DNA from: an uncultured Nitrospiraceae bacterium | GTDB lineage: Bacteria > Nitrospirota > Thermodesulfovibrionia > Thermodesulfovibrionales > SM23-35 | Length of the DNA: 64,000 bases | Assembly (NCBI GenBank): GCA_963727775.1 | Contig: CAVSHB010000004.1 | Span: 312,589-376,588, forward strand | Direction: 5' to 3' | Shown: positions 19,208-56,561 of the stretch, piece after piece | How positions within the stretch are numbered: position 1 is the stretch's first letter | Layout of the letters: each line of letters starts with the position of its first letter | Translations under genes and position numbers: made by a program | The notes under the pieces: model-generated | The model's input: only the letters and a program-made list of their open reading frames with translations | Told to the model about the DNA's origin: nothing | Database searches by the model: none

Positions 19208-19810
19208 ATGAACCTCCCCGCCGCAGAGACGGCGGGGTATCTCGGAAAACTCTCACCAGCGATGGCATCTTTAAATTTTGAACAGTTTTAGCTGACCTGT
19301 GCGCCGCTCTATTTCAGACTTATCCAAAGTCTGATTCCTTATGTATCGCTTAATCACTTCTTCATTTGTTGCATCCCCGACCGTTCCTATGTCCTTGCCG
19401 TCACTCCAGAATTCTCCACCCCACAATTCTACTTTCTTCATCTTCGGAAATTCTTCGAATACTCGTTTCGCCGTTATCGACTTAATTACGTTCAGCACCT
19501 GACTCGGGCTATATTGCGGTTGAGCACCGCAGAAGATATGTATATGATCCTCATCAAATCCAATTTCATCGATTACAATATTGTACCGTTCAGTAATTCC
19601 CCTCATTGTCTCTCTGATACATTTCTCAACTTCCTCATTCAACAAAACCTTACGGTACTTTACAGCAGTCACCAAATGGTATCGAATCTTATAGACCGCA
19701 TGAGGCCTCTTTCCCAGTTCCATTGTAACAGCATTATAATCCCCCAAACCCCCTTTTCAAAAGGGGGTTCACGGTTTCCCCCCCGCAGAGACAGCGGGGT
19801 TTATAATTTA
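19208..19810 (-). mobile_element. IS200/IS605-family tnpA-only element, copy 1 (603 bp)
   Basis: Subterminal hairpins at both ends. Near-identical to 52808-53410, and the boundaries are set by where the two copies stop matching. Target TTAAT lies 5' of the left end; the right end is TTCAT. Confidence 0.9.
19271..19723 (-). CDS. tnpA: Y1 HUH transposase TnpA
   Basis: YHLV..VKYR, DHIH (HUH), KS.TA, FWS.G, YIRNQ catalytic Tyr. Confidence 0.92.
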   Translation of the reverse strand: MELGKRPHAVYKIRYHLVTAVKYRKVLLNEEVEKCIRETMRGITERYNIVIDEIGFDEDHIHIFCGAQPQYSPSQVLNVIKSITAKRVFEEFPKMKKVELWGGEFWSDGKDIGTVGDATNEEVIKRYIRNQTLDKSEIERRTGQLKLFKI

Positions 19811-19820
19811 ATTAATACTA

Positions 19821-20960: not shown

Positions 20961-21334
20961 AAAGAGATGAATTAACCCCGATGCCGAGTCTACCCGTAGG
21001 TGACGGAAACAGGTAGATGAGGATAGATAGAGAACAAAATGAGAATCAGATAAACGGCTAAGCCAATAGTGGCACCGGGGAGTCTGCTAAACCTTGATCC
21101 CCTGTCGCTCATGTCAAATCGAGTTTGCCTCGCTTAAGCTGCTGATTAGCGGTTCGGATATCGCCGTGCATGTTTCGGATAGAAGTCGAGACTTCCTCTG
21201 CCAGAGTTGCAGGTTTGCTCCGGAACAGGTGGCAGGATTGGCTCGGAATCTGCCTGCCAAGTCTTTCGGAAGACATCATTGAAAATATCAAATGAAATAT
21301 GATATAAAATGGATATTTTTAAGAAAGGAGGTTT

Positions 21335-21540
21335 TAGTTTAAGGTTCAGTTTTCAGTTTCGCTGGCTGGAAGCCAGGGAAGAGGAGTGAGCCCCTTAGGC
21401 GATTCTCCCGCTGCCCCGCAGCCGTGAAGGGAACGAAAGCCTGAAATAAGCCACTGTCCCGAAACATATCGGGATGGGAAGGCAGGCAAGTAGGTTACAA
21501 CTTAATGTAAGAGCCCTAAGCCGGAAGACCTGTCCAGACC
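21335..21540 (+). promoter_or_regulatory. Cobalamin riboswitch
   Basis: AGGGAA..., CTGCCCCGCAGCCGTGA, GCCACTG...TGGGAAGGC, and B12-box AGCCGGAAGACCTG, upstream of a TonB-dependent receptor. Confidence 0.88.
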
Positions 21541-21583
21541 AAAATAATATATTCCAAAACAATGTTTCCCGAGGGAGGAAGAA

Positions 21584-28631: not shown

Positions 28632-28860
28632 AAGATTTACTTTACATTAACCTCATATTACCAAGGAATAATTAAATTATTACAAAAAGTAAATTTCTGT
28701 TATTTTCCTTATCTTTGTCTTAATTTTTTATAAACCTCACACATTAATTAATTAAATTTGAAAATTTTTAGCTTGCTATAAGATACATTTTTATTTTATC
28801 TTAGGATATGGAAAAAATATATAAAACTAAGGAGGTTATTGCCACGATTATCGTGCAATC

Positions 28861-29034
28861 GCCTACCCTGTTCGTGATAGGGTGAACTTGTTGATCCGGC
28901 AAGTTAGATCTTTTGGGAGTTCGGGTAAAGAGTTGGTGTGCATGTCTCCCTCGAGGAGAAAGCCTAAAGACTCTTTCAGAGCACCCACCTATAAAACAGG
29001 CGGATCTAATTTCGCTTTACACGGCAGGGTGGGT
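28861..29034 (+). ncRNA. ssrS: 6S RNA
   Basis: Long rod: closing stem CCTACCCTG..CGTG / CACGGCAGGGTGGG, inner stems TTAGATC/GATCTAA and AAAGAGT/ACTCTTT, CACCCACCT on the 3' side. Located upstream of rny. Confidence 0.75.
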
Positions 29035-29168
29035 TTATTTTTATAGGCTGGTTCTTATGACGATATTTTTTTGGAGGATTATACATAAAAATTATATGAT
29101 AGAGAGCAGATGGAAATTTGTTTTCAAAATTAAGGAATTCCCGCCTCCAAAAATCTTGTCGGCGTCAT

Positions 29169-47668: not shown

Positions 47669-48987
47669 TCAATTACCGTGTAACAGTCTTTTGATATTTT
47701 TCATTTCATCGCGGAAAGACTTTGCTTTTTCAAACTGAAAATTCCTGAATGTCTTGATTTCAAGACCGCTGAATGATTCTTTCATCTTGACGGCCCCATC
47801 AATATCTGTCCTGAATATGCGCAGATCCCGCAGCATGTTCAATGTTTCTTCATGCGGATGGCCGAATGAATTATCACGGCCGACGCTGATAACCGCGGCC
47901 TCAGGAGGGACCTCTTTAAGAAAGGATTCACAGGCAGATGTCCTCCCGCCATGATGAGGGACCTTTATGACATCGCATTTAAGCCATCCCCGCAGATGGA
48001 TGATGTCTTCTTGCGCCTCTTTCTCTATGTCCCCGGTAAAGAGAAAAGATGTATGGTTTCCCGCGATCTTCAGTACCAGCGAATCGTTATTTTCCGAAAC
48101 ACATTCGTTCTTGTTCATTGTATAGAATTCAGGGTATGGGTGCAGGACATGCATTTTATATCCGAATCCCTCGATTACGTCTCCTCTACCCAATGAGCGG
48201 TGTTTGATATCAATCAGGAAGTCAGGCAATATAATCCGGCCGTTGTCCCAGAGTTCTTCCACCTTGAATTTTTTTGTAAGGTAATCCGATCCGCCGGTAT
48301 GGTCGGGGTGAATATGGGAGAGGATCAGAGCATCAATAGTCTTCTTCCCCCTATATTTAATGAATGAAGCCGTTTCCCTGCCTGTTTTTCCTGTATCTAT
48401 TACTATGGTTTTTCCGTCAGGAAGTTCAACAACCGATGAATCTCCCTGCCCGACGTCGAGGAAAGTGGGAGTGAGGCTTTTTTTATCGGAGATCGACAAT
48501 AAAAAACAGACTGCTAAAGGGATAAAAGGAATTAACAGTAATTGTTTTCTTTTGTCGAACAGGAAATAGAATAGAAATCCGGCATAAAAAAACACGATTA
48601 TTATCGGCGGGAAAGCCGGTATCTTTATGTCGGCGAACGGTATCCCGGAAAACAATCTCACGAGAAAAATACTTGCATCGGAAACCACGGACACTACGGG
48701 AGTAGTTATGAAGTGGCCTGTAATTAGGAACATAAAAGATGAGATCACGGACAGAGGTATAAGTATGAAGCCTATCAATGGGGCTATGAGGAGATTCGAT
48801 ACGGGAGAGATTATCGAGAAATAGTGGAAATAATACGCCACCAAAGGCGCGGTGCCGATTGACGCCGAAAAGGTCATCAATGAAGCGTCTTTTATGTATC
48901 CGACGATTTTCCTTTCTTCTTTTTTATCGTCTTCGCCGGACCGAACCGAAAAACCGATGAATAACACCGCAAGGAAAGAAAGCTGGA
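47669..48987 (-). pseudogene. comEC: comEC fragment 3 (end of Competence domain + metallo-beta-lactamase domain)
   Basis: QLSFLAV, FLDVGQGDS, LSHIHPDHTGG, NNDSLVL, VPHHGG, FGHPH, RTDIDGA. Confidence 0.92.
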
Positions 48988-50260
48988 GTAAACTACCCTG
49001 CGGCAGAGACCGCAGGGCGTTCAAAAGAACGGATGCGGGCGGCAGAGTTTGCAGTTCCAAGATAAGGAGTAATAGCAGTAGGAGCATGGACTGCGATAGG
49101 TTTGTTTACCGAACCCTTTAAGGCAATATTAATGCTGGCGTTAAGATCAGCGTTTACGGTAAAACCACAGGAAAGACAGGAAAAAACGGATTGAGACTTC
49201 CGGTTGGACTTAGAGATAAAGCCGCATGCGGAACAGGTCCGGGATGTACTGCGGGGATCAACCGTGATAACCGGAATACCCGCTATCTTGGCTTTGTATC
49301 CGATAAAACTGTCCAACTGGAGGAAAGACCAACTGCCAAGCCGTTGCCTATCTGCCTTACGAAACCGTGTCCGAAAGCTTATGCCCTTCAAATCTTCAAG
49401 GGCGATGGCTCTCTCCGTGTCTTTGGCCATAGCAACGATCTTCTTACTGATGCAGTGATTCACATGTTTTCTGAATCGCGCTTCTTTCTTGGCAATCTTT
49501 TTAAGATGTCTCTTAGCGGACTTAGAACCACACTTCTGGAGGTCCCTTCTAATCTTGGACATGCGTTCTCTGACAGCATCGACCTGTTTACCGGAAAATG
49601 TCTCGTTATCCGAAGTGTGGGCTATGCTAACGATGCCCTTATCGACACCAAGTATCCCTATTGGAGTGAACGGGGTGCCGTCAGGCATTTCTATAACTAC
49701 GTTCAAGAAGAACTTGCCGTTCTCAAGGGTAAGGTCGGCCTGTCCTCTCATCCTGTTTTTATCGAGGGAAGCATAAGGTCCCCAAAAGACAATAGGGACT
49801 TTCAGTCTACCATCCACGGAAAGCATGGAGGCAACCTCAAGATTCTTGAAAGACAGAAGCCGTTGGTCATAAACAACTGCAGAGTATTTCTTGAACTTAT
49901 GCAGCACTTTCTTATCAGTGCGATAGGACTGAGATACTTTATCGATCGCGCGCACACAGAGCTGAGAAGAAAGAGGAAATTTGTCACGAACCTCTCTATA
50001 GACAAGATGGTGGAGCGGAACTTGGCTGAACTTGTTATTTTCAAAAGCGACCTTCGATATATAGTTGCAGGCATCATTAAAAGTTGCCATGGTCTTTTTG
50101 AGCGATTGATACTGGTTCGCATTTGGAAGAAGCTTAACCTTAATCGTAAGTTTCATGTGTTTAGTATAGGATATTTTTTATCCATGAGCAAGTCTAAAAC
50201 AAATAGGAGGATGGCTCCTCCCTGTAGCAGAGACTACAGGGTGTCCGCCACACAATTTTA
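48988..50260 (-). mobile_element. IS1341-type (TnpB-only) IS200/IS605 element, 1273 bp
   Basis: Left-end hairpin CCCTGTAG-TCTCTG-CTACAGGG and right-end hairpin CCCTGCGG-TCTCTG-CCGCAGGG. Inserted 3' of TTCAT, ends TTTAC, no target duplication. Removal gives in-frame SPS-F-QLSF. Confidence 0.92.
48993..50156 (-). CDS. tnpB: RNA-guided endonuclease TnpB
   Basis: RuvC D (GVDKG), E (IALEDL), D (NADLNAS); Zn finger CSAC/CLSC; TSRTC. Own promoter TTGCTC-17-TATACT. Confidence 0.93.
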   Translation of the reverse strand: MKLTIKVKLLPNANQYQSLKKTMATFNDACNYISKVAFENNKFSQVPLHHLVYREVRDKFPLSSQLCVRAIDKVSQSYRTDKKVLHKFKKYSAVVYDQRLLSFKNLEVASMLSVDGRLKVPIVFWGPYASLDKNRMRGQADLTLENGKFFLNVVIEMPDGTPFTPIGILGVDKGIVSIAHTSDNETFSGKQVDAVRERMSKIRRDLQKCGSKSAKRHLKKIAKKEARFRKHVNHCISKKIVAMAKDTERAIALEDLKGISFRTRFRKADRQRLGSWSFLQLDSFIGYKAKIAGIPVITVDPRSTSRTCSACGFISKSNRKSQSVFSCLSCGFTVNADLNASINIALKGSVNKPIAVHAPTAITPYLGTANSAARIRSFERPAVSAAG

Positions 50261-51129
50261 ATGAAGGGCTGAACAAGGATTCCGGGTCCCATACAACTAT
50301 TACAAATGCGGCAAAAACCAGTGAATTAAGCCAGAAGCCTTTCCTGCCTATAAGAAGTCCCAGGAGGACTATGCTTATCATAATAAATGACCTGACCGCC
50401 GGAATGCTCGCGCCTGAAAGTCCGAGATATGCAAGCATAAACGGTAGGCAGAACACGGCGGCGATCTGAGAAGGAGTTAGAAAAACTGTTATCCTCTGAA
50501 GGACCCTGTACGGCATTGCGTTAATGAAAAATCTGAACACCCCGAACAACAGCACCGAGAAGATACCGAAATGGCTGCCTGAAATGCTGAGGATATGCGT
50601 CAACCCCGTTATACTAAAAGCATCTTTCGGTTCTTCGCTGATATTTGCCGTCTCGCCTGTTGTTATCGATTCAACAAATGCTCCCGAATCCTTCCCTAAA
50701 TTCTCTTCGATGAATGAATTGACTCTGTATCTGTTTTTTTCGATCATCGAATGCAAAGACAACCTTTGATTTCCTGAATTACGCACCTCTAAAAGGTTCG
50801 CATAAATATCGTCCCTTACCTGCTGCCCCGGATTAAGTCTTTGCCTGCTTCTTAATAATTTGACAATAAAATCATACTCAGTCCCCGCATCCAGCTTTTT
50901 ATCCGAAAACAACATGATTTCTTTTCCGTCCAGCGCATCGATCTTCTCGCCTGCCACGGAATTCACTGCCGACTCTACGGAAAAGGGTTGCCTGACAGTA
51001 CCTGCTTCGGTCTTTACCGGATATGAACTGCAAATACCCTTTACCTCGACATTATCTTTGATATGTGGGACATCGTGCGAAGGTTCATAACGCAAAAGGG
51101 CGTATAGTACCCCCGAAAGGATGAAAATA
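50261..51129 (-). pseudogene. comEC: comEC fragment 2 (DUF4131/OB region + start of Competence domain)
   Basis: TGLTHILSISGSH, GASIPAVRSFIM, WDPESLFSPS. Confidence 0.9.
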
Positions 51130-52807
51130 ATCTGGGAGGAGGTGGTCATAGTGGCCACCCCCTCCCAACAGAACGGCTCGTACCGGCCAGGTAAGCCGCT
51201 CTTCGATCGGTGTTGAACATTTGTTCCAGAGTTTCCTCCGTGACTTCTCGCTTCGTTAAAGATTGCCGGGTTGTGGGTGGCTTTCCGCCGAGAACCGGAC
51301 CTCTGCTGACCTCTTGGATTTATCCAGTCGGTATCTTCGAAAGATTCGAGTATCCCCACTTGGTTTTCTGGTTCCTTCTTTACCTCAACACTAATTCGGC
51401 TCTTTACCGGTGTCACTAACACCTTTCGTCCACAGCTTCCCATATCCCAATCACAACTTCGGGATATCCAGGCATGATGCAGCTACCTGCAACTTCCTGA
51501 TCGTCAGGGTTTTATCCTCCACTCTGTTACCAGGCTTCATCGGCCCTGAGTTATAAGTACTACCTGTGGATCTGCCACCCTCTGCACCCTTCCCGCTTCG
51601 GGTTCTCCTATTCGGTACGGTTTTATAGCGTTAATGACAGCTTCTAACGCCAGCGCAGTAGGGCTTCCCCGGGTAAGACGCACCACCTCACCATATCCCG
51701 TCCGGCTTCACGTCGGTTCGATTCTTCCGGATATCAGGCCTCGCCTATTCACGCCAGCTCGACCTTCTCCCCAACGCCATATAGCCGGATCGCTGTTCGC
51801 TACGGTCGGGTAGGACACAGGTGCAGTAGGTTTAGGCCAAGGACTTTCTGTTTCCCGCCCTTTCGTCTGCGGGTGCCAAAGAACCTCAGACCATGCTCCC
51901 GTTTCCTACATCCCCCACTATAATCCCGGACAGCGGGTTTTCCCCGATCCGGTTTGAAACGGACACTATCCCACCAGCCTTCCCTCATACACCTGCAAGC
52001 TTAAGTGATGGCACACATACACTTGCCATGTACGGGTTTGCTGTATGGCTCACCCTATATTAGGCAGTACAGTTCACGGACGCTCTGTGTCGTCCATTGC
52101 TACCTTGAACATAAGGCGCATCCGCCCAGGGCTCCTTTGCTCTGCAGACATTATATCCGCTTCATCGCTACTACAAGCCCATGCGCCAATCCTGTTGGCT
52201 CTCACTCCTACTTCGGTTTTATCCTTATAAGGAGTGCCCTTTCCGCTTGCTGCCATCCACGGCTGCCAATCAGCACCTTCTCGACTTTATGCTGTTTCTC
52301 TTTCCCGAAGTGCCATGCCCCCTATGTCGGCGGGTCACCAGGTGCTCATAACCAGTTCTTCCCTGATGACTACGGCCTTCACCTCCATGTACAGGCTCGG
52401 CTTCCCGCAACAACCTCACAAAACGGTTTCATGTGAGGGCAGATTTCGCCACGGCAGGCATTCCTTTATGTTACAGCCCTCCGGTTTGCTCGCCTCCCTG
52501 ACCGTTCGGCACCGCTATACGCAGCACCTGGAGACTTCTACACCTGAGCTTCCTGCCAATTCGTTACCTCCTTGGCAGTCAGGTATGCTATCCGGCTGAC
52601 TGGTCAATTGCCGGAACTGGTCTTCCACCAGTAAGAGATACATCTTTGTCGACTGCACTACATGGTTTCTGCCTCATGCTTCCTCCGGACATCCCGTTTC
52701 TGGCAATGCCCTTGCCTTGTTGGCGTTGTCCTTCCGTCCGGTAACGGTGAACTTTTACTTCCGGCATTCCTGCCAGAAGGACGGCGCGTGCGTCATGCCG
52801 GGCGCAC
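51130..52807 (-). mobile_element. ORF-less group IIC intron (outer), about 824 nt excluding the nested intron
   Basis: 5' GTGCGCCCGGCATG; IIC-like DI elements (GGCAAGGG..GGAAGC..GGCAGAA, CTTACCCGGGGAAG); short DV at 51170-51204; DVI hairpin; 3' end ...AT; inserted directly after a hairpin. Confidence 0.85.
51805..52658 (-). mobile_element. ORF-less group II intron (inner, IIB-like), 854 nt, nested in DI of the outer intron
   Basis: 5' GTGCAG; DV AAACCGGATCGGGGAAAACCCGCTGTCCGGGATT (51922-51955); extended DVI ending CCTACCCGAC; EBS1 TACATGG complementary to the upstream CCATGTA. Confidence 0.82.
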
Positions 52808-53410
52808 ATAAACCTCCCGGCCGCAGAGACGGCGGGGTATCTCGGAAAACTCTCACCAGCGATGGCATCTTTAAATTTTGAACAGTTTTAGCTGACCTGT
52901 GCGCCGCTCTATTTCAGACTTATCCAAAGTCTGATTCCTTATGTATCGCTTAATCACTTCTTCATTTGTTGCATCCCCGACCGTTCCTATGTCCTTGCCG
53001 TCACTCCAGAATTCTCCACCCCACAATTCTACTTTCTTCATCTTCGGAAATTCTTCGAATACTCGTTTCGCCGTTATCGACTTAATTACGTTCAGCACCT
53101 GACTCGGGCTATATTGCGGTTGAGCACCGCAGAAGATATGTATATGATCCTCATCAAATCCAATTTCATCGATTACAATATTGTACCGTTCAGTAATTCC
53201 CCTCATTGTCTCTCTGATACATTTCTCAACTTCCTCATTCAACAAAACCTTACGGTACTTTACAGCAGTCACCAAATGGTATCGAATCTTATAGACCGCA
53301 TGAGGCCTCTTTCCCAGTTCCATTGTAACAGCATTATAATCCCCCAAACCCCCTTTTCAAAAGGGGCTTCACGGTTTCCCCCCCGCAGAGACAGCGGGGT
53401 ATATAATTTA
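52808..53410 (-). mobile_element. IS200/IS605-family tnpA-only element, copy 2
   Basis: Near-identical to 19208-19810; inserted 3' of TTGAT within comEC codon 44. Confidence 0.92.
52871..53323 (-). CDS. tnpA: Y1 HUH transposase TnpA
   Basis: Protein identical to copy 1 in the ORF track. Confidence 0.92.
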   Translation of the reverse strand: MELGKRPHAVYKIRYHLVTAVKYRKVLLNEEVEKCIRETMRGITERYNIVIDEIGFDEDHIHIFCGAQPQYSPSQVLNVIKSITAKRVFEEFPKMKKVELWGGEFWSDGKDIGTVGDATNEEVIKRYIRNQTLDKSEIERRTGQLKLFKI

Positions 53411-53541
53411 ATCAATAGAAATCTTCTTTGCATACAGAGATAGATAGAGGCAAGCAAAAAAACAATAACAGCTGTAAAAGGAAAATAGTTGAACGAATAA
53501 AAAAGGACAACTCCTGCAAGGAAAGGAATGAAGAAAAGCAT
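53411..53541 (-). pseudogene. comEC: comEC fragment 1 (N-terminal TM helices)
   Basis: MLFFIPFLAGVVL... hydrophobic start; joins fragment 2 in frame (TTG AT|T ATT TTC). Confidence 0.85.

Positions 53542-56484: not shown

Positions 56485-56561
<77 letters not shown>

Follow-up and report, generated by a model that had tools for sequence, protein, structure and literature searches.

The window analysed here, a stretch of 64,000 nucleotides, contains a group II intron that is non-autonomous, probably no longer mobile and part of a divergent IIC-like lineage that lands mainly at the 3' junction of IS200 right ends; we assign this reading a probability of about 0.8. A preliminary description of the same DNA had called this intron specialised for the right-end hairpin plus the TnpA cleavage motif as its homing site. 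This combination is indeed the main landing site of the lineage, but the preference is strong rather than strict, because 29 of the 84 distinct site clusters among the matches listed are not IS200-like and because such ends precede only 2 of the 5 copies in one genome (G429). To this lineage the window adds an ORF-less, nested and decayed copy.

A nested intron between an IS200 element and comEC

All features of the locus lie on the minus strand. The 5' piece of comEC (53411..53541), identified by its ORF start, encodes 43 amino acids, has no Pfam match by itself and ends in the IS target TTGAT, after which a 603-nt IS200-type element with tnpA only (52808..53410) was inserted; no hairpin was found 5' of this target in comEC. 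A Y1 HUH TnpA (ORF 52871-53347, matching NF033573), subterminal hairpins, the lack of tnpB and a total of seven copies in the genome with TTRAT targets and the same ends assign the element to the IS200 group. Its right end (52808..52841) comprises a guide GATA (52841-52838), a hairpin (52837-52816), an 8-nt tail and the motif TTAT (52811-52808), which is at once the TnpA cleavage motif and the IBS1 of the intron. The IS end reads TTTAT and, exactly as first described, GGGAGGTTTAT (52818-52808) is directly adjoined by the intron's GTGCG at 52807. The contrasting intron-free end of copy 1 of the element (19208..19817, minus strand) was likewise confirmed as GGGAGGTTCAT at 19218-19208.

Alignment to relatives delimits an outer intron of 824 nt that consists of a 149-nt 5' part with the start of domain I (52659..52807) and a 675-nt 3' part with the rest of domain I, domains II and III, an ORF-deleted domain IV and domains V and VI (51130..51804). 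It ends in CCCAGAT at 51130, and comEC resumes directly behind it with a T at 51129 (middle piece, 50267..51129; Pfam Competence and translation). Since all six other IS copies of the genome are intron-free and end in TTCAT followed by T, the intron occupies the precise boundary where the IS stops and the flank starts. The carrier element differs from these six at the right end by two changes, one in the hairpin (G to C at 52819) and one in the cleavage motif (TCAT to TTAT). Downstream of the 43-aa piece, the Pfam Competence domain of comEC is found in two pieces, and a tnpB-only IS605-family element with an unoccupied right end (48987..50266) forms the second insertion in this gene. Altogether, comEC (47669-53541) has been struck twice by IS200/IS605-family elements plus the twintron; the organism has probably lost natural competence. 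Elsewhere in the genome, one IS200 copy is broken within tnpA by a 1.6-kb element (G000:C3:334837-336457), and the window also contains a cobalamin riboswitch (21324-21551), a 6S RNA (28857-29039) and a tRNA (56485-56558).

The two parts of the outer intron are separated by a second ORF-less group II intron of 854 nt that belongs to a different structural type (51805..52658, minus strand; Rfam RF02003). Its EBS1 UACAUGG (52391-52385) is complementary to 7 nt of the outer intron (52665-52659), and an EBS2-like UCUGCC (52443-52438) is complementary to another 6 nt (52673-52668). Exactly these 854 nt are absent from the contigs of three of four public sequencing runs. None of 125 junction rows from relatives among the matches listed has an inner intron at the same site, and among 400 genomes only short matches to the inner intron turned up, in 5 of them. 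The catalytic triad in its domain V (51954-51922) is apparently AAC, compared to AGC in the related intron L012, and the inner intron may be inactive. In run X4, a peat metagenome, an ORF-less outer intron without the inner one (51180-51804, 52659-52747) was seen at a depth of 213 versus 12 for the IS contig; this form may be amplified there, with the caveat that depth does not equal copy number. Bacterial and archaeal twintrons similarly feature a nested intron with EBS1 and EBS2 matching the outer one, but the present case differs from them and from trans-mobilised ORF-less introns in that both introns are ORF-less and the cognate reverse transcriptase (RT) of the outer one is absent from the assembly. 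ORF-less copies are usually accompanied by an RT-encoding relative (PMC4424553).

Several features indicate that the window copy is probably dead. The outer intron has no ORF, and in the fold of domain VI and the 3' end (51130..51168) the branch-site position 51136 is a C without any bulged A, while the branch-site A is kept in 31 of 32 complete relatives among the matches listed. According to PMC4748821, an intron that lacks the branch point comes out as a linear molecule and retrotransposes poorly. The outer intron is single-copy in its own genome by BLAST, and no RT of the lineage was found in this 96.8%-complete assembly. An RT-encoding IIC relative acting in trans had been envisaged previously; such relatives do exist in other genomes (e.g., G206), but none is present in that of the window. 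Seven RT fragments of this genome were considered as helpers and rejected, as they are of other types and only 31–39% identical to the lineage RT. Finally, a single one of the genome's 17 tnpA loci is occupied, the one in the window, and the other 16 are empty though 9 of them end in a perfectly matching TCAC. Judged from these sequences, the outer intron is most likely an immobile relic.

The 5' part of this intron is 96% identical to the RT-encoding copy L082, and its 3' part is 83% identical, over the full length including the deletion junction, to an ORF-less 815-nt copy (L055), which is located at another IS200 end and forms a tandem with a copy that encodes the RT (L055/L056). The same deletion junction recurs in a remnant in genome G423, and 5 of 32 complete copies among the matches listed are shorter than 1.1 kb. 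A junction common to the window, L055 and G423 suggests that an ORF-less sub-lineage moved after it had lost its ORF. The order of events would then have been insertion of IS200 into comEC, mobilisation of the ORF-less intron in trans by a relative with an RT, now missing from the assembly, homing of the second ORF-less intron into domain I of the outer one and, after this, decay.

A divergent IIC-like lineage with a four-base EBS1

Class C membership of the lineage is likely, and several of its features are the ones known from terminator-targeting class C introns such as B.h.I1, O.i.I1 and GsI-IIC: an RT/maturase without endonuclease, a domain I that matches RF02001, a short domain V, a short EBS1 and insertion behind a DNA hairpin. 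The RF02001 match in the window (51691-51809, 32.4 bits) is split by the inner intron, and the scores of relatives (59–69 bits) compare with 118–136 bits for class C controls. Genome G206 encodes an RT/maturase of 420 amino acids with TIGR04416 over residues 16–355 and no endonuclease domain, followed by domain V around 20 nt behind the stop codon. The best PDB match of the lineage RT is GsI-IIC (E 3e-83), so that its best solved relatives are of class C, but it is only 38–43% identical to plasmid class C RTs. In a quick RT tree built without a class F/g1 outgroup, the lineage, on a long branch (1.72), tentatively joined the 9 class C controls to the exclusion of 4 half RTs of other types (SH-aLRT 87). 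The window's domain V (51170..51202) folds into a short IIC-type helix with an AGC triad (51200-51198) and a five-base loop, and the pairing pattern of the short helix is the same as in 3 class C controls picked by motif among 8 loci.

A CGC catalytic triad is a hallmark of class C, and it was found in all 3 parsed class C controls. Unlike these, the window copy and 32 of 32 complete relatives have AGC, a count that is biased because the search pattern required AGC. All 36 lineage RTs, which form one clade (SH-aLRT 100), carry WADD where the 9 class C controls have YADD. We therefore label the lineage “IIC-like” instead of ordinary class C. It also differs from the terminator-targeting introns by its EBS1 GUGA, the five-base loop of domain V, an intron length of around 2.1 kb and, as detailed below, its targets, which for the most part are IS200 right ends with TNAY in the tail in place of a T-run.

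The EBS1 GUGA lies in the d3 loop (51749..51752, minus strand), at the position marked “aaaa” in the loop of RF02001, and a consensus fold computed from 7 sequences leaves it unpaired. The loop was recovered by this alignment fold and by Rfam, though not when the d3 region was folded as a single sequence. At the 72 sites with a readable loop among the matches listed, EBS1 positions 1 to 4 pair with the upstream exon in 71, 68, 49 and 57 cases, respectively, while positions 5 and 6 are at background level; these four pairs above background, together with the upstream hairpin, correspond to the short EBS1-IBS1 interaction of class C. The earlier proposal of GTGAA (51752-51748) as EBS1 thus had the loop right and the length wrong: a five-base EBS1 was rejected because the fifth loop base pairs at 25 of the 72 listed sites, compared to about 28 expected from background. 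Four rare loop variants have junctions that compensate for the change (UUGA/GTAA, AUGA/TTAT, AUGG/TAAT and CAGA/TCTG), with the exception of one CAGA variant (L067) that shows no pairing at -1/-2. Pairing of GUGA or GUGG to the end of the exon is strict at -1/-2 (AC or AT) and loose at -3/-4, and the sequence beyond -4 varies among site flanks. With G-U wobble at -1 and -3, GUGA reads TCAC, TTAC, TCAT and TTAT, all of which rank high in frequency among the cleavage motifs of the IS200 elements in the set. On the other side of the intron, the 3' exon begins with T in 23 and with G in 5 of 32 complete copies among the matches listed. An occupied site might therefore be reused, and the existence of tandem copies fits this idea.

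IS200 right ends as preferred targets

The intron had matches in 5 of 400 genomes of the phylum, including G206 with two RT-encoding copies, and the RT/maturase of G206 as a query on genome contigs gave 21 loci. A scan of metagenomes for the 5'-end pattern yielded at least 123 stretches. Pooling these relatives resulted in at least 125 distinct junction rows, in which kin are not independent. After adding the window and dropping 8 rows with less than 45 nt of upstream sequence, we obtained 118 sites among the matches listed: 5 are tandem sites at which the intron follows its own domain VI, and 113 are non-tandem sites that form the 84 distinct clusters. In 60 relatives searched with the intron, only short or remnant matches were found, in 2 of them; viral contigs contained neither the lineage 5' end nor the lineage RT, and no DNA match to the intron was found in plasmids and E. 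coli genomes.

At 48 of the 113 listed non-tandem sites, the end of a tnpA gene on the same strand lies no more than 300 nt away, compared to none on the opposite strand; for listed sites with at least 250 nt of upstream sequence, the numbers are 46 of 102 and again none, so that the association is not due to chance. The 84 listed clusters divide into 34 with tnpA, 21 that are IS200-end-like (with a similarity to the ends of tnpA clusters that exceeds the 99th percentile for 595 hairpins taken as background; one of them, L162, looks like a terminator), 7 terminator-like ones and 22 other hairpins, around 6 of which look REP-like by eye and one of which (L151) is probably a false match. The other copies are therefore not mainly located behind ordinary terminators, an outcome that would have spoken against the original proposal. 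Several of the targets without tnpA are solo hairpins or mini-elements that retain the hairpins of both ends, and two clusters use left-end hairpins. The solo IS200-type hairpins at L027, L074 and L115 are apparently left-end/right-end recombinants. At L084 (and L198) the intron has no GC hairpin upstream and is preceded by TTTAC or TGAC; it may have stayed in place when the IS was excised.

At these sites, introns start 7–9 nt behind a GC-rich DNA hairpin, which is present by strict definition at 92 of the 113 listed sites. IS200 right ends fit this need because their TnpA cleavage motif T-N-A-Y lies around 8 nt behind the hairpin, and an empty and an occupied IS copy in G206 end at the same base. 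Ordinary class C 5' ends, found with a motif derived from three plasmid introns, served as controls: in the same phylum, tnpA precedes 1 and a T-tail 21 of 29 such ends, and in viral contigs these numbers are 0 and 18 of 38. The lineage has a T-tail (T4) at only 11 of its 113 listed sites and is thus not terminator-targeting. By eye, IS605-like ends also occur under the ordinary class C controls (4 of 29 and 3 of 38, some ending in GGATGT). Seven ordinary-looking class C introns (L207, L230, L239, L256, L203, L199 and L220) sit at IS605/IS200-like hairpins, with L203 located one base past TCAC behind tnpA, and they probably represent a second lineage that uses such ends.

Mechanistically, an intron ribonucleoprotein (RNP) whose RT lacks an endonuclease would reverse-splice into single-stranded DNA at the replication fork, where hairpins can fold. 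A change of EBS1 from an A-run to GUGA may have shifted the lineage from the T-rich tails of terminators to IS200 ends, and since hairpin and IBS1 would survive the insertion, the site could be used again and give rise to tandem copies. As a test for lagging-strand bias, 12 of 17 IS copies were found on the G-rich strand, though the skew is too weak in this draft assembly.

What separates this reading from the most serious alternative is a matter of degree only. The lineage could be a general seeker of hairpins that merely needs AY at the junction, with IS200 ends prevailing as abundant, harmless targets of fitting geometry. We consider this possible yet clearly less probable. The intron also lands, with similar spacing, behind left-end hairpins (L087, L088/L119), REP-like hairpins, terminators and its own domain VI, and 24 of 30 listed non-IS sites end in AC or AT with variable -3/-4 positions. 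However, terminators and other intergenic hairpins should be equally harmless and far outnumber IS200 ends, yet they account for the smaller share of targets here and for most of those in the class C control. In the IS-rich genome of the window, only 10 of 297 sites that combine a hairpin with TNAY|T follow tnpA, so that an association with tnpA would be expected at 3% of sites, whereas it is seen at 45% among the matches listed. Part of this enrichment may reflect survival instead of targeting, because the background is a single genome and includes hairpins in coding regions where insertions would be purged.

It is less likely still that homing is assisted by TnpA itself, with a right end folded or nicked by the transposase fixing the insertion at the cleavage point. 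IS608 carries four guide bases beside the hairpin foot that pair with its cleavage motif (PMC3201880; the fourth-base pairing in our scheme was inferred from IS608 sequences), and pairing of this kind at the exact junction is found in 28 of the 34 tnpA clusters among the matches listed (permutation mean 4.3, maximum 13 in 10000). Shifting the register by 1 to 4 nt leaves 1, 1, 3 and 0 of 34, and the rule fails in 6 of 34 clusters including that of the window. This agreement also supports our main reading of IS200 right ends as the landing site. The insertion thus coincides with the TnpA cleavage register, and both elements act on single-stranded DNA at forks (PMC5027513 and PMC4424553), but the register is already predicted by the 7–9 nt spacing together with AY pairing. 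Moreover, sites that TnpA would not cut are also used (the interior of left ends, REP-like hairpins, terminators and domain VI), and tnpA is missing from many of the IS200-like targets.

The preliminary description had also expected that insertion into tnpB-bearing elements would replace the omegaRNA guide. This was not observed: neither a phmmer search with one TnpB query nor Pfam on 150 + 60 upstream ORFs (of 151 + 63 candidates) revealed a TnpB or IscB upstream of any of the 113 listed sites, though just 55 of them had at least 600 nt of upstream sequence so that some tnpB could be missed. Instead, the targets of the lineage are tnpA-only IS200 elements, like the one in the window, and their mini-derivatives, and both copies of the tnpB element in the window's genome are unoccupied. 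The expectation itself is logically sound, and it may be speculated that counter-selection explains the absence of tnpB. A stronger proposal would build on this and regard the lineage as a third IIC-like target class with an EBS1 adapted to the TnpA cleavage motif and an RNP that exploits the transposase-organised single-stranded right end. The tnpB elements would then be missing because the omegaRNA guide would become the conserved 5' end of the intron and turn TnpB against any intron junction that lies behind a TAM-like motif. We regard this as doubtful and favour the plain preference for IS200 right ends.

The reverse order of events, in which the intron came first and IS200 then inserted into its 5' junction, could appeal to the similarity of IS200 targets (TTRAT here) to NNAY junctions but is very improbable and largely refuted for the window, because the IS target in comEC lacks the preceding hairpin that is strictly present at 92 of the 113 listed intron sites, because the T following all six empty IS copies stands 3' of the intron, and because L087 lies within an IS left end whose sequence continues behind it.

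Relation to known systems

In reviews, the targets given for bacterial group II introns are homing sites, terminators and attC (PMC4424553), and for class C the articles that we consulted describe terminators and attC (PMC7923331, PMC4810608, PMC7306698, PMC4424553, PMC4748821, PMC5027513, PMC13565253 and PMC3552965). We found no description of class C introns targeting IS200 ends in the open-access literature that we searched, and one supplement of PMC4028801 had no match for Nitrococcus, NaphS2, IS200 or IS605. A widespread lineage at the IS200 cleavage point would therefore add a further target type. A parallel is found in IIC-attC introns of the S.ma.I2 type, a class C sub-lineage that shifted to the hairpin of another mobile system (PMC4424553). 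The lineage described here differs from them in that the hairpin is the end of a Y1-transposase element and the junction is the cleavage point of the transposase; no integron context was apparent in the site flanks that we read, and junction motifs among the matches listed were dominated by TNAY.

An association of group II introns with IS605 elements was reported by Kapitonov in 2016 (PMC4810608), but those introns encode RT-HNH and sit inside the transposon, whereas members of our lineage are located just outside the last IS base and would stay behind upon excision. Similarly, IStrons combine a group I intron with IS605 or IS607 in one mobile unit. They resemble our case by having an intron beside an IS200/IS605-family element, but here two separate elements are involved of which one parasitises the end of the other.

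If confirmed, the shift of this lineage would illustrate how a retroelement can be redirected to a different mobile element by a 4-nt change of EBS1. The lineage also makes several points accessible to experiments: what IIC particles recognise in hairpin targets, whether a transposase can help a retroelement, and how an intron behind the right end affects IS excision or, in tnpB elements, the content of the guide RNA.

As a separate observation, all four RT-encoding group II introns in the window's genome (G000) are cut at one and the same conserved PQG-G motif (C1:37764-41240, C1:478298-481774, C4:1-119 and C1:318650-318680). Two of them are interrupted by a 3.5-kb three-recombinase (RIT-like) element and one by the end of this element at a contig edge, while the fourth cut is a short scar joining halves of two different introns. 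This pattern hints at a recombinase element with a preference for the RT genes of introns.
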